A DNA stretch of 64,000 bases, taken from contig JAYREU010000039.1 of NCBI GenBank assembly GCA_041908765.1, positions 7,618 through 71,617 on the forward strand. The letters are read 5' to 3'. Each line of letters begins with the position of its first letter. The stretch's first letter is position 1. Made by a program: the position numbers and the translations under genes. The notes below the pieces were generated by a model, which worked only from the letters and a program-made list of their open reading frames with translations, was not told the DNA's origin and searched no databases. Below, piece after piece: positions 8,658 through 43,873 of the stretch. Source of the DNA: Candidatus Absconditabacterales bacterium. Its GTDB lineage: Bacteria; Patescibacteriota; Gracilibacteria; Absconditabacterales; Absconditicoccaceae.

Positions 8658-8696
8658 CAAATATTCAAATAGTCAAATAAACAAAATACAAATCCT
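8658..8696 (+). repeat. phased CAAAT octamer array, copy 2
   Basis: The units are caaatatt/caaatagt/caaataaa/caaaatac/aaatcc. The array starts 2 nt after the pth stop codon. Confidence 0.5.
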
Positions 8697-8741
8697 GGTT
8701 TCTGGAGTCTCAATTCTTAAATCTCAATTCTTATTTCTCGT

Positions 8742-9629
8742 TTAGTAGCCAATTTGGGGATCGACGTAATTGGGGATTTCTCCAGGATCGAAGAAAATTT
8801 TCTGGAATCTTGGGAGATCAGTAATGTCGTAGGGAAGAGCAAAGTTGAAGATTCAGCTGAATTCTTGATAGTTTACTTGATTGAGAGAATTGAGGTCCTT
8901 TTTGAGTTGATTCAATTGGTTGAGCATATCTGTTTCTAAGTATGCTTTGTGGGTCAAGAGTGCGTCAAAATTTTGTTCGAGGATATATTGTCTTTTGCGA
9001 AGAATACTTGCATGGGTACTTACTTTGTCTGCGAGATAACTGTAAGCGTTTGCATAGATTCTATTGGTAATATAACAAGGTGCTGCCTTGATAGACTGCT
9101 CAAGTCCTGCTTGTGTGTCTCCAGGAAGATTATTTTGAGCGCCAGCGAAGAAAAGTTGATCTCCGCCATTTTTTTCGGTGAGACATTCTTGAGCTATTTG
9201 TTGATGGTCGAGCGCGCGTTCTCTCAATGCTTGCGTGGTGTTCTCAATTTGTTCTAGAGTTTTGGATACATGTTTGAGATGGGTAGTGAGAGCAAGTTTG
9301 GGATCGCTACTTTCTTGGATGAGATCCAACACATCTACTTGTATCAGTGATGAACCTACGGAGTAGAGATGGAGTGCTGACTTGATACTGGGATCATTAC
9401 CAAAACTTCCTTCGCCGAGTGATATATTTGCAATAATAGATCCTACAGCAACGTCATCAACGGTAGTATGTTTGACATAGGTCTCTCAGATCTTGATATT
9501 TTGGTCAACCGTCCACACTTTGAAAAACGAAAATGAAACAGCCTGCTGAGCAGAAAGTACATATCGAAAGAGGAGTCAGATCAAGAAGGCGCCTACAAAG
9601 AGTCTCTTTTTTGTTTGTGTTCGTATCAT
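8742..9629 (-). CDS. hypothetical secreted or membrane-anchored protein
   Basis: ATG at 9629 (MIRTQTKKRLFVGAFLIGLLF...). Reads through TGAs into track ORF 8853-9332 and on to TAA at 8742-8744. Confidence 0.5.
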
Positions 9630-13002: not shown

Positions 13003-16000
13003 ATGTTGAAAAAACAACCAAACGCGCCTCAGCAAGATGCCAACAAACATGACACCAATCTACGTTCTGCGATAGACACTTTCCCAAGTCGAAGAGAAGT
13101 AGCAAAGTTTTTGATTACTGAAAAAAGAAAAGAACTAGGTGATATATTGGAAAAAGGAAAAACCACCAAAAAACTTACCAATGAACAAAAAGGAAATCTC
13201 CATGAAGTACTCCAACATATCGCTACTGCACAGCTCGATGATGAACAAACACTGACTTTGTTGCAAGAGTATCTCGGATCTCTTGCGACGACTTCGACAC
13301 CAAAACAACTGCTTTCTCTTGCACAAAAACTTGAAGCACTCAAGCAAGGCACACTTGCGACAGATACCTGAGTATCTCGTCTCCAAGAACTCTTGCAAGA
13401 TCCAGAGTTTATCACTCACTATCAGGAATCGTATAAAGAACACGCTGAAGGCATCAAACATCTCTCGCATGGTGCAGAATTGTATCGTGCGCCACGTATT
13501 GATTTGCAAACTCTCACCGCGTGAAGTATCACTACCAAAGCGCCCAAGACCAAACAAGGCACGACACTTCCTCTCAAACATATCACTGATGAAGAGAGGA
13601 TGGCAAGTATTGAAAAACTCCCCGCCAAACAATCTTTATTTTCGTCTGCAGACCTTGCTTATTTGGGGCTTACCAAGACGACAATTTCACTCGAGACACT
13701 CGATACCAAAATACAACAGATCAAGAGCTATCTCGATGCGTTACAACTCCATATGTATACCTCGTGACAACTCACGAGTGACTATCCTAGTGCCATAAAC
13801 ACCGAGATACAAACGCTTCGTACCCTCATCACCAAACTTGAAATAGCTAAACAACTCCACCTCGATACACATGAAGTCGTTGCCTATGAGCGTCGACATC
13901 GTCTGCAGTGATTGAAAAAAGAACTAGATACAACATGACTTGCTTCTACCGAAACTGTCACCAAACAATACGAAGAAATGCGTCAACATATTTTCGCAGG
14001 TTGGTCGGTATTACTCACGGGTCCCGTCGGTACCGGTAAGACGGTCGGTGCGAGAAAACTTGTCGCAGAACTGATCGCAACTAAACTGGCTCGCTTGCAA
14101 AAACAACTCAAAGATTTGCCACCAGAAAACATTTCTCCCCCTGTGAAGCACCCTAAAGGGCATAAAGGGGAGTGAGAGGGGGTTTTAAAGCCATGATCAG
14201 CACAAACAGAACTCCTGTACTCTTCTTCTGAAAAAAGCTCTGAAGGACAGGATAAGGGGAAGGTCTCGAGCGCTACGAGTGACAGAGAACAAAAACAACT
14301 TACTCCACAGCAAAAACTTGAAAAAGAGATTGAAAGCCTCACCAAACTTCAAACAGATCCTCCCTTCATCAACGGTAACGCAGAGACCACCGTGAGACAG
14401 TTCGAATCAGTGGTGAGTCAGGTCAAGACCTGAAATGGCCATCTTCTTGAATATCTCCCTGGACCACTCACGCAGTGTATGAAATATGGACTTCCGCTCA
14501 TCATCGATGAAGCCAATCGTCTCAGTCCCGATGTGTTGTCAGCGCTCAAAGGCGAACTTGCCAAGCGTGCAGGTACCAGTTTCACCGACAAAAAAACAGG
14601 CGAGTCCTTCATCATCCAAAAGTTTTCAATTATCCTCACTGCCAACGAAGATCATCATCATGACACCACCAAAAAATTTCAAGATCAGATTGAAAGAGAG
14701 TTCCATAGAGTGACTATCGGCTATCTGCCTCCTGCAGAGTATGCACAAATTATTTCTGCCAAGACAGGGTGATCACTTGGAGTGTTTACAGACATCTGAA
14801 ACGACGCGTGGACAGCAAACATAGATGCTACTGATGCCAGCAAGACTATAGGCGGTATCTTGCCAAGACTCCTCGAAGCACAACAACTCATCATCGCGAG
14901 CTATGCCAAAAACGGCACCAAATACGATATTACCCTCTGATGAACTACCTCCAAACAACAGATCAGTAGTGCAATATGGGATACCAAACGTTTCTTGGAA
15001 CTGCGAAATACGGGACCAGATGATCGACATGATCGCATCAAATATCCGACACTGACCGACTATATCAAAGCCAAAGTGATTGCTTTCATCAAGACTCAGA
15101 TCAGCGACAAAGACCAAATGGTCCTGTGTGTGATTTTCAACAAACTTGGCATCCTTGACGCGAATGATACGCCTGCGCTTGCAGATCGCAATGTATGCGT
15201 CCACCTCAAATGAATCGATTTCAATCCCAATCTTTCCTTGTCTCTCCGTGATGCTCCCTCATCGCACGCACGCATGCTCACGACTCCGTACCAACGAGCG
15301 ACGGCAGATCAGTATGGTGATAGTTATCCTGATATGCCCTTCGATAATCCGCATATCGCCTATGCACAGCTCGCCAGTGAACTCATGACACGTGTACAAA
15401 ATAACTCTACCAAAACCTTACTTCGTCAGATTACCAAAGACGGAGCGTTGCGAAACGAAAAATTACCGAAGCTCGTAGAAGCACTCTGTACCGAAGGGAC
15501 TGATGCATATCTTGGCTTGTATACATACTTATCATCAACACCAGACACGCTGGAGAAGTTTGGCGAACTGCAACAACTCCTCAAAGATAAAAACTTCCTC
15601 CATACCAAAAAAGCCGAGATGCTCACGAAGATCGAGAGTGTCCTTCCCACTCTCCCTTTGGGAGAGGGTAGGGGTGAGGGCAATGACTCAACGCCTCATT
15701 CAGAACAGACCCTCCGTGATCTCCTCACCACCCTTGAAACAGACAACAGACAACTTCCCCTCGACGAACTCACGGACGCACTATTAGCAATCGATGAAGA
15801 TCTTTTTTTGTCGATAGTCACCATCGTAGGAGGAGCTGACATCCTAGACCCAAGTTGACGTCTCCTGAGCAGATATGATCTGATAGATCACTCTCGTAGA
15901 AAAGCAGCGGAGGAAGAGGCAAAAGAAAAAGCCAAGTGACTTGATCAGCAGTCAAACAAGCAACTATCTCCTTGATCGATCCTACAGCTCACCTCATGAC

Positions 16001-17433
16001 CAGAATTTAACCGTATCACCAAATACCGCCAAGACTTCCTCACGCAGATCAAAAATACAACCGAGACACCGCAGAGATTGAAGCAGATCGGTGACGCGAT
16101 GATCGCAAGTGGTGAGTTTGTCCTGTGACAAAAAGCAGGACTGGCCGTTGGCTATTTCAACATTCCTTGATTTTCAGCAGGTTTCGCGACGAGCGATCGT
16201 ATACGAAATGAAAACACTCCTGATCCAGATGACAATCTCTACGCTAGAGACTACGACAACAAAATCCTAGCACCAGATACTATCTACCAACCCAAACTCA
16301 AAGCACTCAGAAGTGATTTGAGAAAAGCCCGAAAAGACCCGATCAAAGCATCTATAAAACCTCTAGAATCACAAGGCATCATCTATGACCAGCAAGGCGA
16401 TATCAAAAAACTTATAGCGCTACTCATGACACAAAAATGATTGGACGAATCTGACGCACTCGCCTTGTATATGTATCTGACGGGACAATATGGTTACTAT
16501 TGGACTTGACAATACTCTTGAAATAGTCTTGGTGTTGTCAGACTCTTTGATGCTCTTCGTCGATTCAATTCGGACGATTACGATGATAGCAACTGCTCGT
16601 TGTTGTTCGCCGTGCCGAGCGGTAGCGAGGTTGCCTCCCCCGACGCACCTGAAATACAGGCACATCGTGCCTGGTGGAACGACAACATCACGTGAATAGG
16701 AACCGCACTTTTGGATCCCACCAAGACGAAGTGAATATTAACTTCGAAGCCCAGAAAGATGGACTTCCCCGATGAGCAATCATGCAAAACAGAACTGATA
16801 GACCGTATGGACAAGCGAGCAGCGAAGCATATCCGTCATATTTCCAACCCCTACAGTCTCGGTGGTTTCGCGACACAGATCACCCATCCAGAGTTCAACT
16901 CAGGCAACCCCCGTAACTTCTTCGAACCGCAGCTCGCAGACTTCAATCGTATCACCTGAAACACCGCTACCGATAATCTCTCTATGCAACAGTATGACTA
17001 TGCTAACCAAACGAAACTCTGAGTGAAGTTACGTAGTATCAGAGGAGATATGAATACACCTGACAAGCTCCCCGATATGATCTACGAAGATGAAACCAAC
17101 AAAACAGGTAAACAAGAAAAAAACCTCACCAAAATCTACTTGCAAGAAGTGAAGAAAAAAATCCCCACCTATAACGCACAGCCCCAGGACGAGTTGATCA
17201 AACTCATGCAGGTCATTGGCGAAGATCTTTGACTCTCTCCAGAATCATGAAAAGATCAACCCTTGCGCAAAGCAGCCCTGATGTATCTGTTCTCCGTGGC
17301 GGGACGATACTGGACTTGACAATACTCTTGAAATAGTCGCGGCGTTGTCTGGCTCATTGATGTTGTTCGCAGTTTCGATGCGTACGATTCTGATTATTTC
17401 CGCTGCTCGTTGTTGTTCGCCGGAGATGCATAG
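13003..17433 (+). CDS. DGR variable protein: large AAA+ (MoxR/AAA_5-like) ATPase with two C-type-lectin-like variable modules
   Basis: A single frame-1 ORF has no TAA or TAG from about 12712 to TAG at 17431, with many TGA=Gly. Walker A GPVGTGKT is at 14020-14043, Walker B LIIDEANR at 14497, and sensor-1-like IILTAN follows. VR1 is internal and VR2 is at the C-terminus (...CSLLFAGDA*). Alternative start: GTG at 12970. Confidence 0.8.
15647..15681 (+). repeat. GC-rich palindromic element ('GEGRGEG' family), in frame within the DGR target
   Basis: ccactctccctttgggagagggtaggggtgagggc, read as PLGEGRGEG. Confidence 0.6.
16527..16612 (+). repeat. DGR variable repeat VR1 (internal, more diverged)
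   Basis: 86 nt, colinear with the TR. By my manual alignment, 10 of the 23 TR adenines are substituted, and there are 5 non-adenine differences. Confidence 0.7.
17337..17422 (+). repeat. DGR variable repeat VR2 (C-terminal)
   Basis: 86 nt, colinear with the TR. By my manual alignment, 15 of the 23 TR adenines are substituted, with only 2 non-adenine differences. The 3' 20 nt (ctgctcgttgttgttcgccg) are identical to the TR and contain no adenine. Confidence 0.85.
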
Positions 17434-17456: not shown

Positions 17457-17474
17457 ATTCCGCGCTAGCGGAAT
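17457..17474 (+). other. hairpin downstream of VR2 (candidate DGR target-recognition stem-loop)
   Basis: attccgc-gcta-gcggaat: a 7-bp stem with a 4-nt loop, 35 nt after the end of VR2. Confidence 0.45.
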
Positions 17475-17498: not shown

Positions 17499-17533
17499 TC
17501 CCTCTACCTTTGGGAGAGGGTCGGGGTGAGGGT
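17499..17533 (+). repeat. GC-rich palindromic element ('GEGRGEG' family), intergenic copy
   Basis: ctccctctacctttgggagagggtcggggtgagggt. Confidence 0.6.
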
Positions 17534-17732
17534 TGTATTTTTTCTGCACATCAGTATCAATCTCCTTGCTAGATCTTACAAGGTCTAGCGAGTCTGGGGG
17601 GACTCAATCTGCTCCGCCACTGGTAGCTTTGTGCTGTCAGTAGTATAAGATGTGCTATGTGGATTTGTTCCAATAGTTATCTTCGCTGACCTACGGGGAG
17701 ACCTGTATCGTCATGAGTTAGTGTGGGGTGAA

Positions 17733-17818
17733 TCGCGGCGTTGTCAGACTCAATGATGATAATCGCAGATTCGATACGAACGATAACGATGATAACAACT
17801 GCTCGTTGTTGTTCGCCG
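17733..17818 (+). repeat. DGR template repeat (TR)
   Basis: An adenine-rich 86-nt copy of the VRs (23 A; reads as AAC/AAT/GAT codons), located 72 nt upstream of the RT start codon. Confidence 0.85.
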
Positions 17819-17890
17819 AGACTGATCTTCTCCTTTCTTTCACTTTCCGCCTCCTGTAGGTGGGAGTGATTTTTTGTTTTCGTTCGCATC

Positions 17891-19069
17891 ATGCAACTTG
17901 TTTATGCAGATCTTCACTACGCCTACCAGCGTGCACGCAGAGGTAAATCCAAGAAAAAAGAAATCATCGCCCGAGAAGCTGATCTGGAAAAAAATATGCA
18001 ACAATTATACAAAGATATTTGTGCATGAAACTATCAGATAGGAACTACCAAAAGATACATCGTAGCAGATCCCGTCGTCAGAGAGATCGTTGCGTTATCC
18101 TTTCGTGACCGTATCGTGCAACACCTAGTCTCGCATTATCTGATGCCGTTATTTGAATCTCAGTGGATACATGATAGCTATGCGAATAGAGTAGGGAAAG
18201 GGACGTTGTTTGGTATCCGTAGAGTAGACAAATTTATGCGTTCTTGTTCTCGCAACTATACAGTAGATGCACGAGTTTTGAAACTTGATATTCAGTCATG
18301 TTTCATGAGTATTTCGAGGACACTCGTACGACAACTTGTGACGCGCCGTCTCTTTGCTTGTAGAGTAGGCCGATCCAAGGAAATTATCTTATCATTGGTG
18401 CACAAGATATTGTTTCATGACTACGTGACTTGACGAGAGGACCATACTATCGCATCCTTGAGAAAAATCCTCCCGGTACACAAAAGTATGTTAGCCTGTC
18501 CACCAAACACCTGACTCCCTCTGGGTAATCTCACGAGTCATCTGTTTTCCAATATCATCTTGCATGAGCTAGATCTTTTTATCAAACATGAGTTGCACAT
18601 ACACTACTATGGCAGATATGTAGACGATTTCGTCTGTATGCACGCAGATCAAGGCTATTTGAAATCTTGTATTGCAAAGATCGAATATTTTTTGAGCACT
18701 CAGCTTGGACTGCATATCCATCCTCGCAAGATATACTTCCAGCATTTCACCAAATGAGTCCCATTTCTGTGAGTAGTCATTAAGCCCTACTGTAGACTGA
18801 TTGGACGCAAAACGATTCGTGCACTACAAAAGCTTCCTTCACTGATTCCGCCACGTATATCACTAGCGGACGGCGTCCATATTGGGCAATCCATCAATTC
18901 TTACTTCGGACTTGTCCGTCATCACGATAGCTTCTGCCTCAGAAAATCCTTGATTTCTGCACTCCCACCCAATCGGTATAATTACCTCCGTGTCCGTCCT
19001 GGGTATAGTTCTGTGAAGCCGAGGGTGAGGGAGGTGCAAAACACACAAAATCTCTTGCAAAAAAATTAA
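17891..19069 (+). CDS. DGR-type reverse transcriptase
   Basis: 392 codons after joining three fragments through TGA=Gly. Motifs include SFRDRIVQH, IHDSYANRVGKGTLFG (the DGR RT hallmark SYAxRxGKG) and YGRYVDDFV (YVDD at 18617-18628). Confidence 0.9.
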
Positions 19070-19278: not shown

Positions 19279-20412
<1,134 letters not shown>

Positions 20413-20415
20413 TCA

Positions 20416-22791
20416 CTACACACTCGTTTCGAGATGTTCTATCAGCAACTCCTGAATATGTTGTCCTAGCTCGTGAGGGGAGTCACAGACTTCACCATAG
20501 CCGAGAGCGTTTGCCTGTGGCTCATCTTGTTTCGCGCCAAAGAGATCAAGGATAGGACTACCGCTCGAGGTGATACCGAGTCCACAGGTGATGATACCGA
20601 GGTCACGGGCTTTTTTGATCTGTTGTTGCATCTTTGTAGCATCATCACTACCTCCATCAGACATGAGGAGGAGGATTTTTTTTCGACGTCAGGATTTGAT
20701 CTGTTCGAGATAGCGGGTGTGCTCCTCAGGAGTATGGTCATGAACAGCTGCATCTTGGAGCTGTTTGGTATACGCTTTCATAGCCACGAAATCGCCCGTA
20801 GATGAGCTGGCGATCTGCAGTTTATGATTTGCGACGAGGAGTTCTTTGGTGGTAAGTTTGGAACTACGCTTTCGTAAGGTGTGTGTTGTTCATCACGAAA
20901 ATAATGATGCTGAACTGAAGATATCTATCCCAGAAATATGTGCATCATCAATCTCTTCTTGCAACCTCGAGAGTGCATAGCCGACGAGAAGGGAGTTGAC
21001 CCTTTGATCATAATTTTTGGTTCATTTGGTCATTGATCAAGACCCATCAGCAATGAGATCAAACTCGAATCCATTGAGTTCTTTTTTTTCTATTTCTCTA
21101 CGTTTATTTTGTTCTCGGATGTGCGGATCGCCGTCTTGATTATCGGTGAAAAGATTTACTATCTCATCGGTATACATAGCACCGTTACTTTTCTCTCGTT
21201 TGACGGGGCCACGATACCCAGGGAGGTGAGTGGCTTTGAGTGTTTGGAGACGACTGAGAATATCTTGCGTGATGAAGTTGAGAATATTACGTCATTCACT
21301 ATCGGTGAGTGCTTCGATAATTGATTTTATCTGTTCTCGATCGTCAAGTTGTTGGAGCAGAAACTCTTTTGTCTTGTCGAACGTTTTGTGCTTGGTGTTG
21401 AAATTTTCGTTCGCCCGATCTACGAGTTCTTCTTTTTTATGCTCGAGGAGGGGATCATCAGCTTTGAGATCAAAGGTTTGGTTGAAGGCTTGTTCGAGTT
21501 TTTGGTCTTTCTCAGTCTGCGGAGTTGCGTTGTGGGTGAGTTGAGCAAGGAGTTGTTTGAGGTCAGAAGGGGTGGGTTGAGATAAATCCCCCGGCTCGTT
21601 TCACTCGCCACCCCCTTTATCAAGGGGGAAACTCTGTGGATCGACGTTGATGCCTGCTTGTTCGAGGAGATGCGGGATGGTGCGAGGGGTGCCGGTGGGA
21701 GCTGCGCCTTCACCTTCATTCTTCGCCTTATCGCTCTCCTTATCCTTTCCTTCAGATTGCTTTCCCGAAGGAGAGGGAGGTTGTTCTGCTTGCCCTTCAT
21801 TATCCTTAGTTTTGGATTCTTGCTTTCACTCAACCGTTCATTCAGCCTTGCCTTGAGTTTGATTTCCATCTTGTGCTCACCCTCACCCCTGCCCTCTCCC
21901 AACCGTTCATTCGGCTTCGCCTCATTCACTAGGAGAGGGAGTATTAGTGGGTTCCTTATCCTTCGCCTTATCATTCTCCTGTTCTTCTAGTTCGAGGTAG
22001 ATGTCAAAGAGCTGAATCATCGCGGGATATCTCATCGGGAGCGTGTTGAGTTGTTTATGCGTTCGTACATCGCTTGCAGATCTGATGAGTAGTTCGTTGT
22101 TGTCGATATAAGATTGTACTTCTTCATCGACGAGAGGTCGTGATCCAGTAGTTTGCCCTTTCAGAATGGCTCGAGCGAACTGCTCGTGGAGAGGATTTTC
22201 TTTTTTGGTGCCGTCTTGGAGGATTGTGTATCTGAGATCTGTCTGTGGAACAGTTCGTTCGAGATAGTTGTCACGCATATAGGGTGCAAGGGTGTTGGTT
22301 TGCTTCATATCTGCTGACCATTTATCTACTCGAATATCTCTGATGATGTTTTCGAAGTGTCTCCACTTTTCACCATAGGTGCGCAGAAGATCTTCTCTTA
22401 GGTGCTGTGTTGTATTTTTGTAGTTCGTAAGTCTGACGGTACGTGGTCTTGGAGTTATTTCGCAGGATGATTGATCTGCCATCAGCTGTCCGTACTCTAC
22501 CATATGTCCGATCTCGTGGACGAGAATTTGTAGGATATGTCATTTCTCGAGAATGAAATTACTTCCTTGTTCTTTGACGAGTTGTGAAATATATTGCGAA
22601 GTGAATTTAGGATTAAAAAAAATCGTACTCTTACCGTGTTGCATTCGTGCGATGTTTTGATTGTTCGTTGCAATCTGAAAAGTGATACCCTTCATCTGGG
22701 TAATGGTGTGCAGAATACTTTGAAACTCACGTTCGAACTCTGTGGTCGTCCGCTCAGAGATATCGAGGTGAGTGGTGGGAGTATTTTTCAT
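20416..22791 (-). CDS. HExxH metallopeptidase-like N-domain plus von Willebrand A (MIDAS) C-domain protein (DUF2201-like architecture)
   Basis: One minus-strand frame is open for 791 codons. HEIGH lies within 22501-22518, followed by a Gly/Glu/Lys-rich linker. The MIDAS motif DGSGSM is at 21034-21048 and the vWA C-terminal part (LLLMSDGGSDD) follows. TAG stop at 20416. Confidence 0.8.
21877..21900 (-). repeat. GC-rich element ('GEGRGEG' family) inside the vWA-protein linker
   Basis: caccctcacccctgccctctccc is the reverse complement of the family consensus. Here it is read in a different frame, as GRGQGGGG, using two TGA codons. Confidence 0.5.
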
Positions 22792-31437: not shown

Positions 31438-32580
31438 ATGCAAAAAAGTTTTTTTGTTCTCACGATGTTACTTTTGGGTAGTCGGGGAGTAGCATTTGCT
31501 GATCCACAAACTATTATTGCTGCTCGTGAACAACAGTTGGGAATTGCGAATACAGACATGTATACTTTTATTCAATGAAGAGATATACTAGCAACAATTG
31601 AAGAACAATGCGCTTTTGAGGCCATTGAATTAGCATTGCAGTACGAAGATACCATTCAAGATAAGCTTACTGATTATTATAATGCACGATCATCTGCTGA
31701 CGTTCTCGCTCACTCATGGGATATTTATGAGCACATCAATCGTGTGCAGGATGATATCCGCAACTATTCTCCCAAAAACTACTGTGCATTGAAGCATATT
31801 TTCTATAGAACACAAGATTTTTTGAGAGATAAACATATGGCGGTGTTGGAAGATACAGGTATCATGAAAGATTTCGAAGGATTCAGCGATCTAATTTATG
31901 GCTACCAGACCAAGCTTGAGTACTTAGATGCATTGATAGAACGTAATCAAAAATATCCCGGACTTTTGGGTACCAAATTAGTCTTTACCTATCTCAATGG
32001 TGACTTCAAGCAAGACCTCTCTAATGGGGAGCGCGAACTGTTGGATCGTATACAGGCACTGATGGAAGTGATGGTCGCCGAAGCATTGTATAGTCTCTTG
32101 CAGGAGTGAGTCTTTACACAGGCTGATATTGATATTCTCAAAAACAAAGTAACATTCCAATTTGTAGAAAGTTGTGATGTATTTCATGGCAAATATGAAA
32201 TCAAAGAGACACTTACTTCCCAGTGAGAGCACGTCAAGTATGATACGGAACAACTCTTACTCAAAATCAACTATTGTACCAATTTCTTTGTGTTGAGAGA
32301 TCTAGAACATATCTTCCAAAAGATCATTACGCATGAATTAGCACATCACTTTTATTACTATCATGACATGGATGTGGATGCGTTCCACGATATATGTTGG
32401 GTTGATGAAGATACCAAAAATGGTCAATGTAAATCAAGTGACTATGTATCAGAATATGCACAAACGCTAGCGGTAGAAGACTATGCTGAGCAATTTATGC
32501 ATCGATTCTTGGGCATTATCCCTGTCAAGAATACAATCATCAATCAGAAAACCGCCCACTTTTCACAAATGATAAAATAA
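31438..32580 (+). CDS. secreted protein with HExxH zinc-metallopeptidase motif
   Basis: Signal peptide MQKSFFVLTMLLLGSRGVAFA and ITHELAHHFYYYHD near the C-terminus. Three fragments are joined by TGA=Gly. Confidence 0.55.
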
Positions 32581-32617
32581 GATTCCTTATTCACTTTATT
32601 CATCCCAACTCCTCTCT

Positions 32618-35600
32618 ATGAAAAACTTTGTACTTACCATCAAGTCTTATTGCTTGCATTACCGCTATATAGTGGTGAGTTTTTTTGTTCTAAGTATACT
32701 TGGCCGAAGTAGTTGACTACCTTATAGAGAGGTAGTGTTTGCACAAGCACCCAATCAATGCATCCAGGATGTTGCCAAGTTTCAAGAGTGTATTGCATCG
32801 GGTATGAGTAAAAGATACTGTACCTATCTCCACACAGACAAATCATGCCTAGCTACACAACCAGAGGCAGCTGCACTTTCTACAGAAGCAAGTCCCTATG
32901 TGGAGCAGTTAGTCGATCAAGGATTTGATCCGTATTGGATTGAAGTGGAACTCAAGGAGAAAGATAAAAGAATTCTCCAAGACTTTGATCACCAAACACA
33001 AGATGTAGCAACCTATGCAGACAAACTAGCGAGAGTTGCGGATGCTGCAGAGACGAGTATTCTATGAGTCACTTTTCGTAATTCTACCTCCAGAGTAAAT
33101 ACTTATTTCGCAGATGCTGCCAAACTCTATCAGCTTGATCACGTCGAAAATATTACCGCCTACTGGAAAAAATATAGCGACAATATAAATGCTAACGTCT
33201 ATCAAATTCGTGTCGATGACCCAGCGGATATCGAGGCTATCAAGCAAGACCTGGAGGCACTGGATGATGTAGCTGAGGTGCGTGTGCTTCCGCAGTATGA
33301 AACCTTTGTCGTTCCCAATGATCCGCATTTTTCTTCGAAGTTACGACATTTGAAATGAGGTGCATGAGTCAATGCAGTCGAGGCATGGGATCAACTCCAA
33401 GGACAGACTATTACCCCGGTGGTATGTTCAGCTTCTGATAGCGAATTTACCAAAGGCCACGAAGATCTAGTAGGGAATATTGATTATGCAGATGCAGGTC
33501 AGGATGGTCCTACGCATGGGACGCATGTAGCTGGTATTATGCTCGGCGTGACCGACAATACCAAAGGTATTTCTGCAGTTTCGTACAACGCATGTAGAGG
33601 TAAATTGTATGTTGGCTTGTGAACATGGCCTTCCAACCTTCAAAAAGCGCATGCGGCATGAGCAAAGGTATTCAATATGTCTCTGGGTATTCCCAACAAA
33701 TGATGTGGCGTCCCTTATGCAACCTACAAGAGCAAATATTTCAGCGCAAACGAACAAGCAATTATCGATGCAGCTACAGCTGCAGGTGTCACGGTGGTAG
33801 CAGCAGCAGGCAATGATGGTTGCAGCTTTTCATCTTATCCAGCGCTTTATGAAAATGTTATTTCTGTAGTTGCTTTGGACCAAGGCGGTAACAAAGCAAG
33901 TTTTTCAAACTATGGACAAGGTACCGACGTAGGTGCACCGGGAGTAAATATATATTCTACGTGGCCAGGAGGATACAAAGATGCAAGTGGTACGTCTATG
34001 GCAACTCCATTGGTTGCTTCGTTAGTTGGTTTGCTCAAAGCACTCAAGCCAACATTAACTACTGCTGAAGTACTCAAGATTTTGCAAGAAACGGCTGGCG
34101 CGCAATTCAAAGTCGATGCATGTAAAGCAGTCGCCAAAGTATTGGGTAAGTGATATCAGTGTACCTGATCAGGAGGTGGAGGTGGTGGAAACACCATTGG
34201 GGGAAGTACTACTGCGTGAAGTACGAGTGCATGAAGTACAAGTGCATGAAGTACGAGCGCATGAAGTACGAGCGCATGAAGTACAAGCGCATGAAGTACA
34301 AGCGCATGAAGTACAAGTGCATGAAGTACAAGTGCATGAAGTACAAGTGCAGGATCAACCAGTGCTGGTAGCAATGGCGGATCAAATGGTGGAGGTATTA
34401 GTTGTTCAAATGGTATTAGAGATACCAATGAAACAGATGTAGACTGTGGAGGAACCTATTGCCCACTTTGTCAGGAGTGACAAAGATGTAATGTTGGCTG
34501 GGATTGTGATACACAGTATTGTGATATTTGACAACAGGGTTGAAATAATGGTGGAAATAATTGAAATACGAATTGAAACACAAATTGAAGCACCAACGGA
34601 GGAGGTAGTTTGCCTCCAAGCAAGGATCTAACCTTTTCGTATGCAAATGGATCTACACAAAAACTGAGCACACTCTTCAACTGACATCCCTATATTTTTG
34701 TAGATTTCTCAGCATCACGATGTGGGTATTGTGTGCAAGGAGCTAAGACGCACAATGCATTGTTCCAATGACGAAATGATAATGGGAGTTGTGCCTTTGC
34801 TGCAATAGTTGCAGACGGAGATCTTTGAGCACGACAGGGAAGTATAGCATGAGCACCATTTGTAAGCGCAAACTCAGTATTTGCAAAATGAGATGGCTTG
34901 GCGAAGGTAATTGCGAAACTCTGAGGTAGTTCTGGCGGTATTCCATATTACGTTATATTTGATCAAAACGGAAATATTATCCAACAGCAACATGGGTATT
35001 CTTCATCGATGCCGCAATTTGATAGCATTTGTGGTCAAAAAAATAACGGAGGTACTAATTGAGGTACCAATGCTTGAAATAATAATAGTGGAAACAATAA
35101 TTGAGGTACCAATTGAACCAATAACGGCTGAAATAGTGCCTGAGGAAATTCTTTGTCTGATGCAGCAAAAAAAATCAAACTTACCTTCAATGGTGGTGTC
35201 ACTAAAACTTTAGACGATGTGCATCAGAATCAATATCTACTTCTTGATATAGGAGATTCAAACTGTGGTCAATGTGTAGTTGGTGCAGAAAAACATAATG
35301 AACTCTTTCAAAAGCGAACTAATGATGGGAATTGTCAGTTGTTAACTGTCACTAAAGATGGCGATCTGCCTGCTTGGGTTGGCAAAATTTGAGCTGCTCC
35401 TTTTGTACAAAAATGGTCTGCTTACGTGACAGATGGTTTATACAAACTTATGTGAGCACTCAATATTCCTTGAACGGTTTTGCCGTATTATGCACTTGTT
35501 GATAGTAAATGACAAATTGTTATCGACCAGCAAGGGTGGTCTGATCTTGAAAAGAATTTTGCATCATACTGTGATGCACAGTGAGGGACTAATGGAGGAA

Positions 35601-38600
35601 ATACAAATGCTTGATCCAATAATGACGGAGCATGTGGCCCAGCAAATGGACAATCATTTCCAGATGCAGCTGCCGTAAATGCAGCAGGGTTATGTGCTAA
35701 GTGATCGGCAGTCCCATCCACAATATCAGGCAAAAGCCCATGGACTCGACAATGTCAGTGATCACAATGATGAACCCAAGTCTCATGTAGTGCACAAGAG
35801 GAGGTTAAGCAATACCCCATAGTTGATTTAGCTAATGTGAAGGTGATGTGAATACAACCTGGAGAAAAACGATTCACAGATCTTTATGAAAATAATTACC
35901 TCTTACTCAATCTTTCAAGTTTTGTATGTGGTGCATGTAAGACTGCTGCGATAGCGAATGACAAAACCTTAGAAGATCGACACAACAACGGCCAGTGTGC
36001 ATATGCAGCATTAATAAGTAGTGACAAACAATCTGGCTTTCCTGGTTGGATTGCAGATCCACAGATTAATAAAGCACCATTTATCAAAAGTAGATCATTC
36101 TACCCATCGAATTACAATATCTATCAAGTGATGGAGAAGCTAGGTCTGCCTGCAAATACCGCTTTCCCGTATTACTTCCTTTTGGATGGTCAAGGCAACG
36201 TGATCATGAGTAAGCAATGAACTGCGTGAGGACTAGATATGTTCAAAGCACTCTGTGCTCCTGCGTGAAATGGAGGTGCTTCCCCTGAATGTGGAGTTGC
36301 GAAGGGTAAGGAATTTGCAACCGCTGCAGATCTAAACAAAGCTGTTGTGGATTTATGTGAAGTAGGAACTCCTGATCCTGCTACTTTTTCAGGACCATGA
36401 GATTGGCGATGGAAATGTAAGGAGTGATCAGCTTCGGTTGATTGTGTTGCCAAACAAAAAGCAAACTGACCATCTTGTCCTACCTATGGAAAGGCATGTA
36501 TGATTTCAGCTACTGATTGGTGAGTACATGATGAAAATTGTACTTGTACCTGTGATGGTGACTATCCACAATTTGATTACAATGATGACTGAGTTTTGGA
36601 TCTCACAGATAAAGCTTATATTCAAGAGCATATTTTATGAAAGAAAGTACTTCCAGCTGGAAAAAATGGCGATATAAATAATAATGGTTTCGTGACAGCT
36701 GCTGATTCAGCAGCCTATTCAAAATTACTTCATTGTATTTGAGGAGACCAATCTCAGGGTACCTATGGTGTAGTTAAATGACGATCAGGTAGTCCAGATG
36801 GAAAATCTATCAATTATCCAGGTGGACTTGGATATGATGCTACCATTGATCATAGTTGTACTACAGACGGATGACCGTATTGTGATGGAGTAAAATGAAT
36901 ATGTTATCCAAGTGGTGCCAAATGTTATTATTTCTGTCAAGATAGTAAAGGTCTGGAAAATTATACTACCTCATGTGCACAAGGTACTGCAACAAGTATC
37001 GTCCAACCCAAAACATGTACGTCTTTGATGCAAGATGACAAAGCATGATGCGGTACTCATAAATCATCTGGACTCAAGGGAGAACAAAGTGACCCACAAG
37101 TTTGATCGGCTTTCCTGAATGGATTGTATGCTATGTGACCTATTGCAAGATCACCTATATTCCAAACCGTTTCAATTACTGACTCAGAAATTGAGCGTTT
37201 GGTAGCAGAAGCGTTGCGTGGTAAAATTGCTCCGCTTGAGCCAGAGTTTATACCTGGAGCATATTTTGTCAAAGTTGCTTACTCTGCAGAATCACCTGAT
37301 CGTGTACAAGCGTATTTGCAACCTTTCGATAGCAAGAAATCAAAACCAGAAGTCTATACCAAGCAGCTCACTACAGCACTACAGACTATGGAAGTAGACG
37401 CACGTCAATTTGCACATCGTCAAGTCAAAGATAGTATCACTACGTTGTTGGAAGATACTCCATTAGTCAGTATCACACCATTGTTTGATGCTACCAAAGT
37501 ACAGTCTGATGATGGTGCACAAGATCCTTTGTACAATACCTATGCAATCAACTTTGATACGAGTGATGAACGTTATTCAGTTGCGTCAGTGACAGACTAT
37601 CTCAACACACTCAAAGGAGATGGCGAAGATTCGTATGTTGAGAAACAACCACTCTATAGAGTATTGCAGACCAATGATCCTATGATCAATCAACAATGGT
37701 ATATCTCCAAAACTGAAGCACCAGCCGCACGGACAGCAGGTGCAGTTGGCAAAAAGAGTACTATCCTCGCAGTGGTTGATGATGGATTTGATGTGGATCA
37801 TCCAGAGATCAAAGCCAACTTGGTCAAACAATACAATGCAATGAATGGTTCAAATAATGCTGATAATAATTGTCTCCATGGGACACATACTGCGACGACT
37901 GCAGCGTGAGGCACCAATAATAGTATCGGTATAGCATCAATTTCAAACAATGTAGGACTGATGGTGGTGACTGCATCTGCTAGTTGTAAAACACTACCTG
38001 CTGCCTTTCAAGGTATGCAATATGCAGCACAAAATGGGGCAAATGTAGTTAGTATGTCCTTCGGTGGAGGAGGGTTTAGTCAAACACGACAAAACTTAAT
38101 CTCGAGTAATCCACAAGTTAAATTTGTAGCAGCAGCAGGAAATACACCTTCTACTACCAAAAATTATCCAGCAGCATACCAAGGAGTATTGTCTGTATGT
38201 GCTTCAACAGAAAGTGATACTATGGCATCCTTTTCAACGTATGGAGACTGGGTAAGTGTGTGTGCTCCGGGGACGAATATTATTGCATGAGAACCAAATA
38301 ACTCATATGGTCCATTACAAGGCACTTCAATGGCTACACCCAATGTAGCTGCTTTGGTAGCATTATTATTGTCAAACGGAGACTCAAACCCATTCCAAAC
38401 GATTGTGAATAGTGCCGACAAAGTAGTTAATAAACCACCATATTTACGTATCAATGTCTGTAGAGCAATTGATCAAAGTACAAGCCTCACCTGTACAGCA
38501 ACAGGTAAATGAGGTGGAGGAAGTTGGTGAGGGGGAAGTAATTGAGGCAATAATGGTACTACCAATGGTGGTTGATCTACCAATGGTTGAGGAAGTAATA

Positions 38601-41434
38601 ATGGTGGTGGTAATAACAACTGATGATGAAGTGTTGGCTGAGGAAATAACGGGGGATGATTTGGTTATGGCGTCTGTGCAGTATATAATGGTAATTCAGT
38701 TAATTCCGTCACTACAGAGTTTGTGAGTCTCATTGATGAGATTACTCCAAGTGGTCCCGTTGCACAGTGTAGTTATGTATGTGCTGATTCTGCTTCAATC
38801 ATAGGGCAGATGGTGCCTTGTACTTCCTTAGCAAACACGAGCACAGAATGCAATGGAAATGCTTGTATGGGATTATGTTCTCAGACGGTGATGAAATGTA
38901 CTGATACCGCACAGTGTCCCAAAGGTGAATTCTGTGATACCATAGCATTGGCAAGTAATTTGGTGCAATTGCAATCATGTACGCAAGCATGAGGTGGTGG
39001 AACAACCACCTCTGGCTCACCGACCGCTTGATGAACTACTGGTTGACCTACTACTCCTGTACCTACACCAACGGGTGGATGAACAACCGCTTGATGAACT
39101 ACAACTGGATTGCCTCCGGCTACTACTGCTGGGTGAACTACAGCTTGATCTACGACAGCTTGAGGATGAGCAACTACCTGTTCATACCGATGCGCAAACG
39201 GACAAACATTTGGCACCACCTGTACAACTCCAGAACAAAATAGTGCTACTTGTGGAGGGACTCCTTGTTTTGGAATGTGTTCCAATGGATTACAAAAATG
39301 TCTTTCCAATGCTGATTGCACATCTGTCGGTGGAGTGTGTGAAAAAATTAGTGTGAACCCATCTCAACCCAATACACCACCTACGCCATGTGGAATTGGG
39401 GGAGGTGCAACTGCATGATGAACTACCGCAGGGTGAACAGTTGGATGAAATACTACTGCATGATGAACTACCTCTGCGGGAGGTACTACAGCAGGTGGCA
39501 CCAATGGAGGAAATAGTTGATCTTGAACCACGGGTACACTTTATACGTATCCATTGATTGATGTGAACAAGCAAGCACATACTTCTACTATTACACCAAA
39601 TCAAAAAGTGAAATGGCAATTAGAAATTACCTTTAGATCACCAGCACCACATTATCCAGTAGGTAGCTTGCTCGTGATGGATGCAATGCCTCAGTGATTG
39701 CAGTTTATCAAATGAGAAGAAAAAGTGCAGTTCGCTGGTAAATATGAGTGAGTACAATATGACACGGGCAAACAGTATGTAAATTTTATGCTCAAGATTG
39801 ATGCAACAACCAAACCATATAAAGAAGATGCGCAATTCAAATGGTACAAGGCGACCATCACGTATTATACCTTAGTGGCTGCAAATGCTACACCAGGTAC
39901 CTACGTCAATGGCGCATTGGTAGGCTGTTATGCTATGAGTTCTACGGTAGATAAGTCTAAGTATGCAGGTGTGCCTACTTGTGCATTTGATCTTGAACCA
40001 GGTAAATCAGTAGTTGGTTTGAAAAAAACGTTTCCTCTTACTTTGTGATGAACATGATCTGCTTGCCTTCCAAAAGGTAATGAAGCAGATTACTGTAATG
40101 ACAAGGCAGACAATGACTGTGATGGCCAAGTGGATTGTAAAGACAGCGATTGTAGTGCGAAGGCTCAATGTCAGAAGAATAATGGCGATCATGGTAGTCC
40201 AGATGATTGTGGTGATGGCATTAGAGATGTAGGACAAGGTGAGGAATGTGATGATGGAAACACCAAGGGAGATGATGGATGTTCAGTAGGATGTAAAGTA
40301 GAAAAAGGACGACAATGTACTGTGGATTCACCGAGTATATGCGGAAGTCTGGATTGTTCTACGCATGGCGAGTCATTCGGCAAGGCAAATCTCAATGGAC
40401 AATGCTGTAGTGGATTAGAACCACTTGTGTTCTCTCTCCCTAGCAAACTCATCTGAGTAACTGAGCAAGTTACGTTGTGTTATGATCCTACTATCGATGA
40501 GCCAATGTGCTACCAGAATAAGAAGCCGATGTGATGGTATCTCAAACCCAAGGCAACTGCAGAAACTAAGCTCGTCTATGAAACTGATTGTAGCGTAGCG
40601 TACAATGATTATTATACCAAACTCCAGGATACTCTTGCGCAAAAACAGTCCTACTGTCAATTTACTGATGAAGCATATGAGCGTGTTGATTTCAAAGATA
40701 TTACCAAATCACGCGAAAGAGCAGCAATCTTAGCACTCAGACATTTCTGTGTCGTCAAGGGAAGAGGCAGTTCATTGAGTAATTATGCACCTGAGGGGAG
40801 GGTAAGTAGAGCAGAGTTTATCAAGATGCTTTACAAGACGTATGCTATTCAAAAGGATATTATTATTGCTCCTGAAAGCGATGCATTTGACGGAGACACC
40901 TACTTCAAGGATGTTGCACAAACACATTGGGCTGCACAATATATAGCTTCTGCACATGAGCTTGGATGGTTGACACCACTCGAGAAATGAGCTATTTTGA
41001 GTAGTTTCTTCTCGCCCAATAAATCAATTACCACCAAAGAGATCAAACAGATCTTCGATTGGGTAGAGGATGGACAGGATATACCTGCGGAAACTATAGA
41101 TGAGATCTTGTGAACCAGTACTTATCCCACAAGAGCAGCAGTTGCTAATTTATTGACCAAGAAGTTCTTGCCGAAGTTTGTTGATTATTTCTACCTCCAA
41201 GATGCAAATCAAGGCTACTACAAAGAGTTGTTGAATCAACTCAAAGGCAAGAAGTATACCGAACAATACGATATCATTGTGCAACAGATAGAGAAGCTTG
41301 GTCAAAAAGAACATGGATCTGCATTGCAGGAGTGATTGGATCCCTTTTGGATTATGAGTTTCCTCAAGAAACTTGCCTCATGAAGAGCAGGAGTTAAATG
41401 ACCTGTGCCATCACCAGAAAATCCTAGTTCATAA
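32618..41434 (+). CDS. giant (about 2938 aa) cell-surface multidomain protein: 2 subtilisin S8 domains, 3 thioredoxin-like CxxC domains, dockerin-like and Cys-rich repeats, DUF11-like domain, SLH domains
   Basis: Checked line by line, frame 2 has no TAA or TAG for 8.8 kb, and at least 11 track ORFs share this frame. S8 triads: [15 protein letters not shown] near 33.5-34.0 kb, and DDGFD/HGTHTA/GTSMATP at 37.7-38.35 kb. The CxxC redoxin-like modules are [17 protein letters not shown] and SSFVCGAC. Dockerin-like DYNDDGVLDLTD...[12 protein letters not shown] lies near 36.56-36.72 kb. Also present are [17 protein letters not shown] Cys-rich repeats and SLH-like FKDITKS.../[14 protein letters not shown] at 40.69-41.0 kb. 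Confidence 0.75.
34217..34351 (+). repeat. 15-nt tandem repeat x9 encoding (G-S-T-S-A)n, with the Gly encoded by TGA
   Basis: The unit is tgaagtac(a/g)ag(t/c)gca, nine head-to-tail copies, in frame within the giant ORF. Confidence 0.9.
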
Positions 41435-41590
41435 GATTATTTCATAAGTACACTTTCTGTAGAAAGTAAATAGTATATATACACAAAAACTCACAAAGAC
41501 AACTTGAATGATGTTGTTTTTGTGGATTTCGTTTAGACAATTACGAGGAGAGTGGTATAGTGAACATACTTTATGTATCTTGAGTATCGT

Positions 41591-43873
41591 ATGAGACAGC
41601 AATTTTCACTTCGTATATCTTTGCTTATTTGAGCACTCGTATGAAGTTTGAGCTTCTATATGATAGCTATCCAATTTTTGGGTGATTATTATGTAGCAAT
41701 AGTGTATGCACAGAGCTGTTGAATTGTATGAGATACGGATGGGGATGGTATTTGCGATAATGTGGACAATTGTGTAAATGTGGTGAATCCAACGCAGGCT
41801 GACGTAGATAACGACGGAAGAGGTGATCTTTGTGATAATTGTCCTATTGTGTACAACCCTACACAAACAGATAGTGATGGAGACGGAAATGGGGATGCAT
41901 GTGATAGTGTCTTTGGTACAGGCATGTGTACTGGTGCTACTGTGTACAATTTTGATGTCTTTTATTCTTCCACGGGCAACGGAATCACGAGTTGTGATGA
42001 ATGATACGCACTATTCAAACAAGAGTTAGCAAATATGTGTCAGGATATTTCTTCACTCAACCTGTCTGTATCTTGTGTGGTCTCATGAAGCACCGTCACC
42101 TGATCAATTACAACAACTAGTGTTTTGTATAATGCAACTTGATACCTCAATCCCTCACTTTCTGGAGCATTTATGTGTTGTTACTATCCTACGAGTCCAA
42201 TATATCATGGTTTGCCTTGTGCTACAGCACTGACGTGTGGTGGAGGACAATGTCTATCTTCTCCATATCCCTGTGGACAGGGATACACTACGGGAGTGAG
42301 TGTACATATTTCTGGATCAGCGACCTGTTGTGAAAACCCTCCCATCAATGGCGTATGTGGATGAGCGAATAACTGAACATATGATAATTCTACTGGCGTA
42401 AACACGGCAGGTTTATGTGCAACTGGTGTTGCTACTCCTCTCACCGTCACGGGTGCTGGTCCTTGGTCTTGGAGTTGTGCGGGGCTTAGTGGAGGAAGTG
42501 CTGTGTCCTGTATGGCCTATTCCAACTGAAATGGTATGTGTGGTGGTGCAAGCTGAGGAGTATATCAGAATGCAACGTGAGTAAACCTCAGTGGACTGTG
42601 TGCAACTTGAGTAGCAGTACCAGCTGCGGTTACTTGAGCAGGTCCTCGGACTTGGATGTGTCAATCTCAATCGGGTGGTACTACCTCGACCTGTAATGCA
42701 TACAATCGAATAAACGGTATTTGTGGAGCTGCTAGCTGAGGTACGTATACATGAGCTGCGGGAGTCAATTGAGCAGGATTGTGTTTGACTTGAATTGCAG
42801 TACCCGCTGCAGTGACCGGTACAGGCCCATGGTCTTGGACGTGTCAATGAGCAAGTGGTTGAACCTCTATGAACTGTATAGCCAACTACACCACCTGATG
42901 AGGCGGATGAACCAACGGGGGAGGTGGAGGATGAGGAGGAACCAAATGAGGATCACTCAAATGACGATGTGGAGATGGTATTTTGCAGTCTAGACATGGT
43001 GAAGAATGTGATGATGGCAACTACAAAGATGATGATGGGTGTAGTGACACGTGTCGTTGGGAGGATTGGACCGAAGATGATGATGATACCACAGAAGAAA
43101 AATTTGAGAGTGGTATCATCAAAGCTATTAGAAAGCTTAAAGATGCTTGTGTGTATGATGATTTGATTTATGAAAATATTTTCTTTAGAGATGTGCATTG
43201 GAGTCCCTACCGATCAGCTATCAGCGTGCTCAAATCTGCATGTATTATCAATGGCTATGGGTATGGAAAGAGATCTTCTGCAGATTTCCATGCGGATGCA
43301 GCAGTAGGAATTGGTGAGGCGATCAAAGTAGTGAGCAAAATTTATGCCCTCGAAGAAGGGGTGATGTTCGATGAGACAGAGACGCATCTAGGTCGCTTAC
43401 CCTATGCCGATATGAAAGCAAATGCTCGGTATACCACCTATGTGATCTATGCATATACACACGGACTACTTGATGGTATTGGGGTAAGTAAATTATGAAG
43501 TACGTATCTCAAGGCGTTCACTCCTATTTCACCAGATATGTTGCAGCAACTGCTCTACAATGCAGGTATCAAAGAAGACTATCGTGATGAAATGGGGTGG
43601 TGAAAATATGTTTCTAGAGATCGTTTTGCGATGATCGTCACCGATGCGTTTGCGGACAAACTTATTGATTATAAATATATGAATGGTAACAATATCACCA
43701 TATATGATATGATCTTGGTAAATCTCAAATGAAAATCTGAATCCGCACAAAAAGCATATATTAGAAATCTCATTTCTCATCTCCAAGAACAAGATGCTGA
43801 AGAGATGGCGAAGACCTATGGTATTGATCTGGAGTGACTCTTGTTGTTCTTGAGAAAAATAACACCGTACTAG
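41591..43873 (+). CDS. secreted surface protein with thrombospondin type-3 Ca-binding repeats, Cys-rich repeat modules and an SLH-like C-terminal region
   Basis: Frame 2 is open for 760 codons. Contains [39 protein letters not shown], then tandem roughly 50-aa NG.CG...GLC...GPWSW.C..GG..C modules (three clear copies plus a more diverged one), then [17 protein letters not shown] (SLH-like). Confidence 0.7.

Follow-up and report, generated by a model that had tools for sequence, protein, structure and literature searches.

Can one protein carry two variable regions in a single reading frame and diversify only one of them? This question is raised by a diversity-generating retroelement (DGR) in DNA from Candidatus Absconditabacterales bacterium (assembly GCA_041908765.1, contig JAYREU010000039.1, positions 7,618 to 71,617), a stretch of 64,000 nucleotides that we call the window. 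Its target gene encodes two modules, M1 and M2, which end in an internal variable region (VR1) and a C-terminal one (VR2), respectively, and is followed by one template repeat (TR) and a reverse transcriptase (RT) gene (table 1). An initial annotation, made from the sequence, had offered two readings: two independently diversified binding surfaces, or a VR1 that is a retired copy. We conclude that VR2 is diversified now and that VR1 is a fossil of past diversification, because VR2 occurs as five alleles differing mostly at TR adenines while VR1 is invariant and carries fixed non-adenine changes. Taken as a whole, the locus is likely to be a chromosomal DGR of a bacterium of the Gracilibacteria/Absconditabacteria type that reads TGA as glycine, with a two-module AAA+ protein as its target, VR2 live and VR1 frozen.

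Three copies of the repeat are aligned in register (16498-16612, 17308-17422, and 17704-17818). The repeat proper is 88 nt long, and the variable region of each module corresponds to 29 codons. All copies end with the same invariant, adenine-free 20-nt sequence, CTGCTCGTTGTTGTTCGCCG, found exactly three times in the window (in VR1, VR2, and the TR) against none expected. Of the 18 differences between VR2 and the TR, 16 are at TR adenines (hypergeometric P = 2e-9); VR1 shows 16 differences, 11 at TR adenines (hypergeometric P = 2e-4) and five elsewhere. The adenine-directed differences that identify the TR/VR pair of a DGR are therefore present in both VRs. Three of the five non-adenine changes of VR1 lie at its 5′ end, as had been noticed in the initial annotation, and the remaining two are C17766T and G17773A. 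One non-adenine change, CGC to CTT, replaces by a leucine an arginine kept in 12 of 14 modules of the family. The annotation had also described a stretch of about 30 nt before each VR that is absent from the TR. It corresponds to a 28-nt flank, TGGACTTGACAATACTCTTGAAATAGTC, identical at both VRs and present exactly twice in the window (none expected), of which only the last few bases, overlapping the start of the repeat, are shared with the TR. This flank is not a hidden extension of the TR, as the sequence upstream of the TR is unrelated. With 25 adenines distributed over 16 variable codons, the TR could specify about 10^14 different peptides, and no stop codon would arise under genetic code 25.

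Nine further contigs (L002-L009 and L017), obtained in other sequencing runs, also encode the RT protein; we compared them with the window over 3.4-12 kb. Outside VR2 they are identical to the window, save for 0-2 stray single-nucleotide polymorphisms. Conversely, contigs that span VR2 and carry a different allele show 14-16 differences from the window inside it. The nine copies of VR2, which represent about four to five independent sample groups owing to related run sets, fall into five alleles that vary in 23 columns, 21 of them at TR adenines. These data show that TR-to-VR2 transfer with adenine mutagenesis occurs in natural populations. In contrast, the seven copies of VR1 that are spanned, from several sample sets, are all identical, including the five non-adenine changes, and the TR sequence does not vary among all contigs. 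Ongoing diversification in populations is thus found for VR2 and not for VR1. The comparison shows that VR1 does not turn over between populations; it does not imply zero heterogeneity within a sample, as low-frequency VR1 variants are invisible in assembly consensus sequences. The proposal of a retired VR1 is borne out by this contrast within an otherwise identical locus, and that of two independently diversified surfaces does not hold for this strain. Some contigs break at the repeats: the start of L006 coincides with the invariant end of VR2 (window position 17403), and, among related loci, L001 ends inside its own TR and L010 starts inside its own VR. Reads that are heterogeneous at the variable region would produce such breaks.

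If both VRs were independently diversified, the protein would show two hypervariable surfaces at once. The 20-nt 3′ end and the 28-nt 5′ flank are indeed identical at both VRs, a non-random hairpin lies downstream of VR1, and both VRs of a homologous locus, L013, differ from their TR almost only at adenines. However, seven identical copies of VR1 on the same contigs that carry five VR2 alleles, together with its five fixed non-adenine changes, make this explanation very unlikely for the window. Alternatively, VR1 might still be targetable and only look frozen, either because new variants are purged by strong selection or because homing is rare or conditional. The scaffold of M1, as conserved as that of M2, points to a functional module that could be under tight selection, and there is a precedent for VRs of a single target that are not equally active (PMC10907252). 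Yet any homing event spanning the five non-adenine changes, including the lost family arginine, would overwrite them, and the fact that they are fixed in every sample speaks against any recent homing. We consider persistent targeting of VR1 unlikely and retain a live VR2 beside a fossil VR1.

Both VRs had been assigned to one uninterrupted frame, and this assignment holds. Under code 25, positions 13003-17433 form a single open reading frame (ORF) with 30 in-frame TGA codons (Gly) and zero TAA or TAG ahead of the terminal TAG, and the gene callers of the source databases also predict a 1476-aa product at this gene (on L002 and L005). The contrary explanation is that the long ORF is illusory, TGA being a stop and the region a set of short ORFs or a pseudogene, or that the two repeats are an assembly artefact. 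Read with table 11, the region is broken into ORFs of no more than 206 aa, but recoding rules out this misleading listing. In glutamate dehydrogenase (PLG@GKG@ and Q@AGNAG, with @ for TGA) and in a ClpB-like protein (GA@NAEG and SNM@S), TGA occupies invariant glycine positions; the genome therefore reads TGA as glycine and the target frame is uninterrupted. In addition, relatives have either TGA or GGN at homologous positions, and long TGA-containing ORFs tile the entire window. Regarding an artefact, the two-VR layout was assembled independently in six more contigs (seven copies including the window) and is also found in relatives 36-50% identical. An illusory ORF or artefactual repeat is already refuted and has almost no remaining probability. 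Code 25 is the code of Gracilibacteria and Absconditabacteria, and several of the closest named relatives of the RT carry the annotation "Candidatus Gracilibacteria". A tRNA scan of the 64-kb window returned zero tRNA genes; a tRNA-Gly(UCA) was therefore not seen there. Very large code-25 ORFs also occur at 32576-41434 (2953 codons, 107 TGA) and 41561-43873 (771 codons, 32 TGA).

Table 1. Features of the DGR locus and its neighbors, in window coordinates.
Feature	Position	Strand	Remarks
DGR target gene	13003..17433	+	1476 codons, code 25
AAA+ ATPase region of the target	13945..14682	+	Walker A GPVGTGKT at aa 340-347, low-complexity insert, AAA_5-type core at aa 457-551
Module M1, ending in VR1	16000..16614	+	aa ~1000-1204
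5′ flank of VR1	16501..16528	+	28 nt, codes WTGQYSGNS
VR1	16525..16612	+	aa 1175-1204; 88 nt; fossil variable region
3′ flank of VR1	16615..16646	+	GTAGCGA ... TCCCCCGACGC; related to the 3′ flank of VR2
Different perfect hairpin after VR1	16657..16673	+	CAGGCAC-ATC-GTGCCTG; 7-bp stem, 3-nt loop
Module M2, ending in VR2 and the stop codon	16870..17433	+	aa ~1290-1476
5′ flank of VR2	17311..17338	+	28 nt, identical to the VR1 flank
VR2	17335..17422	+	aa 1445-1474; 88 nt; active variable region
Hairpin 3′ of VR2	17457..17474	+	ATTCCGC-GCTA-GCGGAAT; GC-rich 7-bp stem, 4-nt loop, then a C-run
TR	17731..17818	+	88 nt, 25 adenines, rich in AAY codons
Terminator-like stem and T-run	17844..17866	+	Between the TR and the RT start
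RT, probably DGR-type	17890..19069	+	392 aa from ATG 17890; Pfam RVT_1 1.1e-15
AAA_14/DUF4143 ATPase	19279..20412	+	Adjoins the RT
HExxH (zincin-like) protein with G/E-rich middle and C-terminal vWA domain	20416..22791	-	DGSGS MIDAS motif

In the BPP-1 DGR, the target is marked by a hairpin or cruciform with a GC-rich stem of 7-10 bp and a 4-nt loop, located downstream of the VR at a distance of about 4-34 bp (PMC3240598). The hairpin 34 nt after VR2 fits this element and is a candidate target-recognition hairpin or cruciform. The sequences downstream of both VRs are related, as the initial annotation had stated. At the homologous place after VR1, we found no 7-bp hairpin; a 4-bp GAGG/CCTC stem is left there, which folds no better than shuffled sequence. 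The annotation's statement that only VR2 keeps a 7-bp hairpin is thus correct for the homologous place, but another, unrelated perfect hairpin of 7 bp lies within coding sequence 44 nt after VR1, and only 28 perfect hairpins of this kind exist in the 64 kb. Moreover, the apparently active VR1 of L013 is also followed by weak hairpins only. The loss of the hairpin as the sole cause of VR1 silence is weakened by these two observations. Targeting of VR1 might have been lost through one or more of three changes, namely the missing VR2-type hairpin, altered bases at the 3′ junction, and the three 5′ mismatches, a causal account that the data suggest only weakly.

The two modules are paralogous. The similarity between M1 and M2 (38% identity, E = 4e-16) is detectable only over about 115-180 aa, and the period from VR to VR is 270 codons. 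Hence, the proposed duplication of a roughly 270-aa module stands in that a VR-bearing module was duplicated within one ORF, but 270 is the period rather than the extent of paralogy. Comparison of the window target with its L013 orthologue gives 57% identity for the M1 scaffold and 61% for that of M2, against about 24% for the first 995 aa. Because no other part of the protein is as well conserved as the two scaffolds, this comparison indicates that M1 is not a decaying domain; its scaffold is still under purifying selection, and only its variable patch stopped varying.

The family is very rare. A 544-aa two-module query against a word-indexed protein database returned, for the C-terminal half, no close homologue except P0001; a homologous-protein search with a five-module alignment as query and a related-locus search in genome and metagenome contigs both gave zero matches. 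Only seven real family members emerged when 1.84 billion representative proteins were searched exhaustively with a profile, and all those long enough to judge have two modules (P0122, P0123, P0124, P0125, and P0126). P0001 is encoded on L001, a fragment of a JGI contig of 1.66 Mb; locus L013 is a stretch taken from that contig. The L013/L001 locus encodes an AAA+ target of 1250 aa, 50% identical to that of the window, with two VRs 798 nt apart and, after a further 360 nt, a TR. In the 60 nt of this TR that were compared, 12 of 13 differences in VR1 and 12 of 12 in VR2 are at adenines. As both VRs of this 50%-identical homologue differ from the TR almost only at adenines, two diversified VRs are probably the ancestral state. 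Paralogous VR modules in one ORF with one TR are found in the window, and the layout is kept in L013, in P0122-P0126, and in L014. Judging from these sequences, the two-module layout is old and the norm in the family. L014 encodes the two-module homologue P0125 (1187 aa), with VR-like repeats at 8687-8788 and 9473-9571. No TR was found in the ~1.4 kb downstream of this target, a stretch partly taken by the start of the vWA partner gene (see below), and the L014 template may lie further away or be lost. The initial annotation had proposed to look for one-module versions in related genomes, and one exists: L011, a second DGR in the JGI genome of L013, has a 721-aa target with a single M1-type module that ends right after its VR. 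The 5′ flanks are identical between both VRs within a genome and different between genomes; in L014, the two are not identical. The within-genome identity suggests gene conversion between modules.

A C-type lectin (CLec)/FGE-like fold, which the initial annotation had proposed to look for in both modules, could not be demonstrated. Searches with Pfam detected only AAA-type domains in the whole target and, in 15 module sequences, no FGE-sulfatase, Lectin_C, or DUF1566 domain even at E<=10. Profile searches of PDB sequences with the modules gave nothing relevant, solved DGR variable proteins included. Structures were predicted on the modules of the homologue P0001, with tryptophan written at TGA-coded glycines and a shallow alignment. 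The M1 model (15-row alignment) reached a pLDDT of 74.5 and a pTM of 0.74, with only 47-61 in the VR part, and the M2 model (pLDDT 39.7) was unusable. A Foldseek search with the medium-confidence M1 model against PDB and BFVD yielded no match better than E = 0.39. Given the shallow alignment and the tryptophans at glycine positions, the modules may nevertheless have a CLec core.

The N-terminal half of the target and a neighboring gene give indications on function. The AAA+ region matches Pfam AAA_5 (8.6e-6, 26.2 bits for a cut-off of 22), and its best matches among PDB sequences are the AAA modules of midasin (4e-6). The zincin-vWA protein encoded beyond the RT has a weak Pfam VWA match and a BLASTP match of 7e-18 to L016_up; two homologues of this partner pass the Pfam VWA/VWA_2 cut-offs. 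It is linked to a two-VR target in four loci (the window, L013, L014, and L016), in varying arrangements. The locus therefore combines, in conserved linkage, a MoxR-like AAA+ ATPase and a vWA protein, as in vWA-MoxR systems. In the VMAP type, the diversified domain is fused to the vWA protein; here, it is the AAA+ protein that bears the modules. Among the neighbors, Pfam detected neither a VMAP domain nor an effector that would mark a third component. By analogy with MoxR-vWA conflict systems, the target may be a hypervariable sensor of a ligand or "antigen" that works with the zincin-vWA protein. Perfect 15-nt tandem repeats coding for GGETE or GEGEK runs are found in vWA partners, at 2167-2481 in L013 (15 copies) and at 10803-10937 in L014, and the window protein has a G/E-rich stretch at the equivalent place (~21700-22000).

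The RT has 2927 relatives at E<=1e-10. RTs of the DGR clade are characterized by (I/L)GxxxSQ and YxDD motifs. The window RT possesses the YVDD motif and an LGNLTSH motif where 106 of about 120 relatives have SQ (LGNLTSQ type). VR2 is diversified with normal adenine specificity despite this SH motif. The stem between the TR and the RT could be the end of the TR transcript or a structural part of the DGR RNA; stems with T-runs also follow the TR in L010 and L013. Neither an avd nor an HRDC accessory gene was found, small ORFs not having been searched with profiles; the neighbors are a DUF4143 ATPase and the vWA protein. An AAA_14/DUF4143 gene lies beside the RT, in either orientation, in four loci (the window; L011, 9188-10324; L012, 1275-2411; L013, 9284-10471) and may be an accessory factor or simply a frequent neighbor. 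A 31-nt repeat with a short internal hairpin, CTCT(C/A)CCTTTGGGAGAGGGT(A/C)GGGGTGAGGG, occurs in the target ORF (15650-15680, coding PLGEGRGEG), in the interval that separates the VR2 hairpin from the TR (17502-17532), and, inverted, in the vWA gene (21879-21902).

These elements suggest the following mechanism. The RT would copy the TR into cDNA, misreading adenines, and the mutated cDNA would replace the homologous variable region in the target gene. The target is a cytoplasmic-looking 1476-aa protein in which a midasin/MoxR-like AAA+ domain precedes the old paralogous modules M1 and M2. VR1 was formerly diversified, as its adenine-biased differences show, before becoming fixed and gathering five ordinary point changes. 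Several observations weigh against this reading or parts of it. In addition to the consensus nature of the contigs and the relatedness of the run sets, these are the 7-bp hairpin that VR1 has of its own and the weak hairpins of L013 VR1, both at odds with hairpin loss; the SH of the RT in place of the usual SQ; and the lack of any known fold matched by the modules. No Avd-like accessory ORF was detected, nor any free ORF between the target, TR, and RT, small ORFs not having been searched with profiles. As to a role in sensing or conflict, the evidence consists of domain content and gene linkage, and PADLOC gave no significant match for the target N-terminus and the vWA protein (only mad8 over the P-loop, E 0.023).

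DGR targets usually carry a single C-terminal VR. This rule, given in the initial annotation, is generally true, but tandem VR modules with unequal activity have already been published (PMC3521204, PMC10907252), and two modules are the rule in the present family. Tandem VRs in one target are therefore rare but already known. DGR-diversified sensors associated with AAA+ (MoxR/midasin)-vWA pairs have been described in multicellular cyanobacteria and in gammaproteobacteria (PMC7159879, PMC10907252; Marichromatium, PMC3521204), and some of these targets bear three tandem CLec-VR domains whose VRs are unequally active (PMC7159879, PMC10907252; also PMC3521204 for Marichromatium). Like the window, these MoxR-vWA (VMAP) ternary conflict systems (Thiohalocapsa PB-PSB1 DGR 4/5 and Marichromatium purpuratum 984) combine several paralogous VR modules per ORF with one TR, unequal activity among a target's VRs, a neighborhood that includes a MoxR-type AAA+ ATPase and a vWA protein, and cytoplasmic-looking targets. 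They differ in that their variable modules, three instead of two, are on the vWA protein and not on the AAA+ ATPase. The CLec/FGE signature is undetected in the window, where the vWA partner has HExxH in its N-terminal region and neither a VMAP domain nor a protease/TIR effector was identified. The hosts also differ, a small code-25 bacterium on one side, a multicellular cyanobacterium or a gammaproteobacterium on the other.

The nearest published description, according to the shared midasin-like AAA feature, is that of the VR class "UVR4", made up of DGR targets from the candidate phyla radiation (CPR) with a midasin-like AAA/P-loop domain and a VR of unassigned fold (Wu et al. 2018, PMC5758913). 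As far as the description goes, the resemblance comprises a CPR-type DGR, a midasin-like AAA domain upstream of a fold-unassigned VR, and no obvious phage context; the parts of it consulted do not mention two VRs per target for this class (PMC5758913). The BPP-1 DGR (Mtd, TR, bRT, and Avd; PMC3240598) shares with the window the adenine-specific TR-to-VR transfer, a VR at the 3′ end of the ORF, and a GC-rich hairpin (7-bp stem, 4-nt loop) that follows the active VR within 34 nt. In contrast, the window has no Avd gene, a GCTA loop instead of GRNA, no clear IMH/IMH* pair, a large AAA+ target instead of a phage tail-fibre CLec protein, and a second, internal VR.

A bolder interpretation, which we find rather doubtful, is that the VR modules are a DGR scaffold neither CLec nor Ig, of which a tandem would be joined to a midasin/MoxR-like AAA+ motor in one protein that works with a zincin-vWA partner. 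The whole would be an intracellular, retroelement-programmed recognition machine of code-25 CPR bacteria, in which one module is "locked" on a fixed specificity and the other is exploring. The locus in any case points to a possible variable-protein scaffold missed by current profiles and structure libraries. It provides a natural control within one protein, with sister VRs that share one template and one RT, one live and one dead, and a relative in which both are apparently live. Comparing live and dead VRs can reveal the cis elements that define DGR targets, which would be useful for DGR-based directed evolution. Finally, DGRs had been linked to AAA+/vWA "sensor" systems in multicellular bacteria, and the locus adds tiny recoded bacteria to this association.

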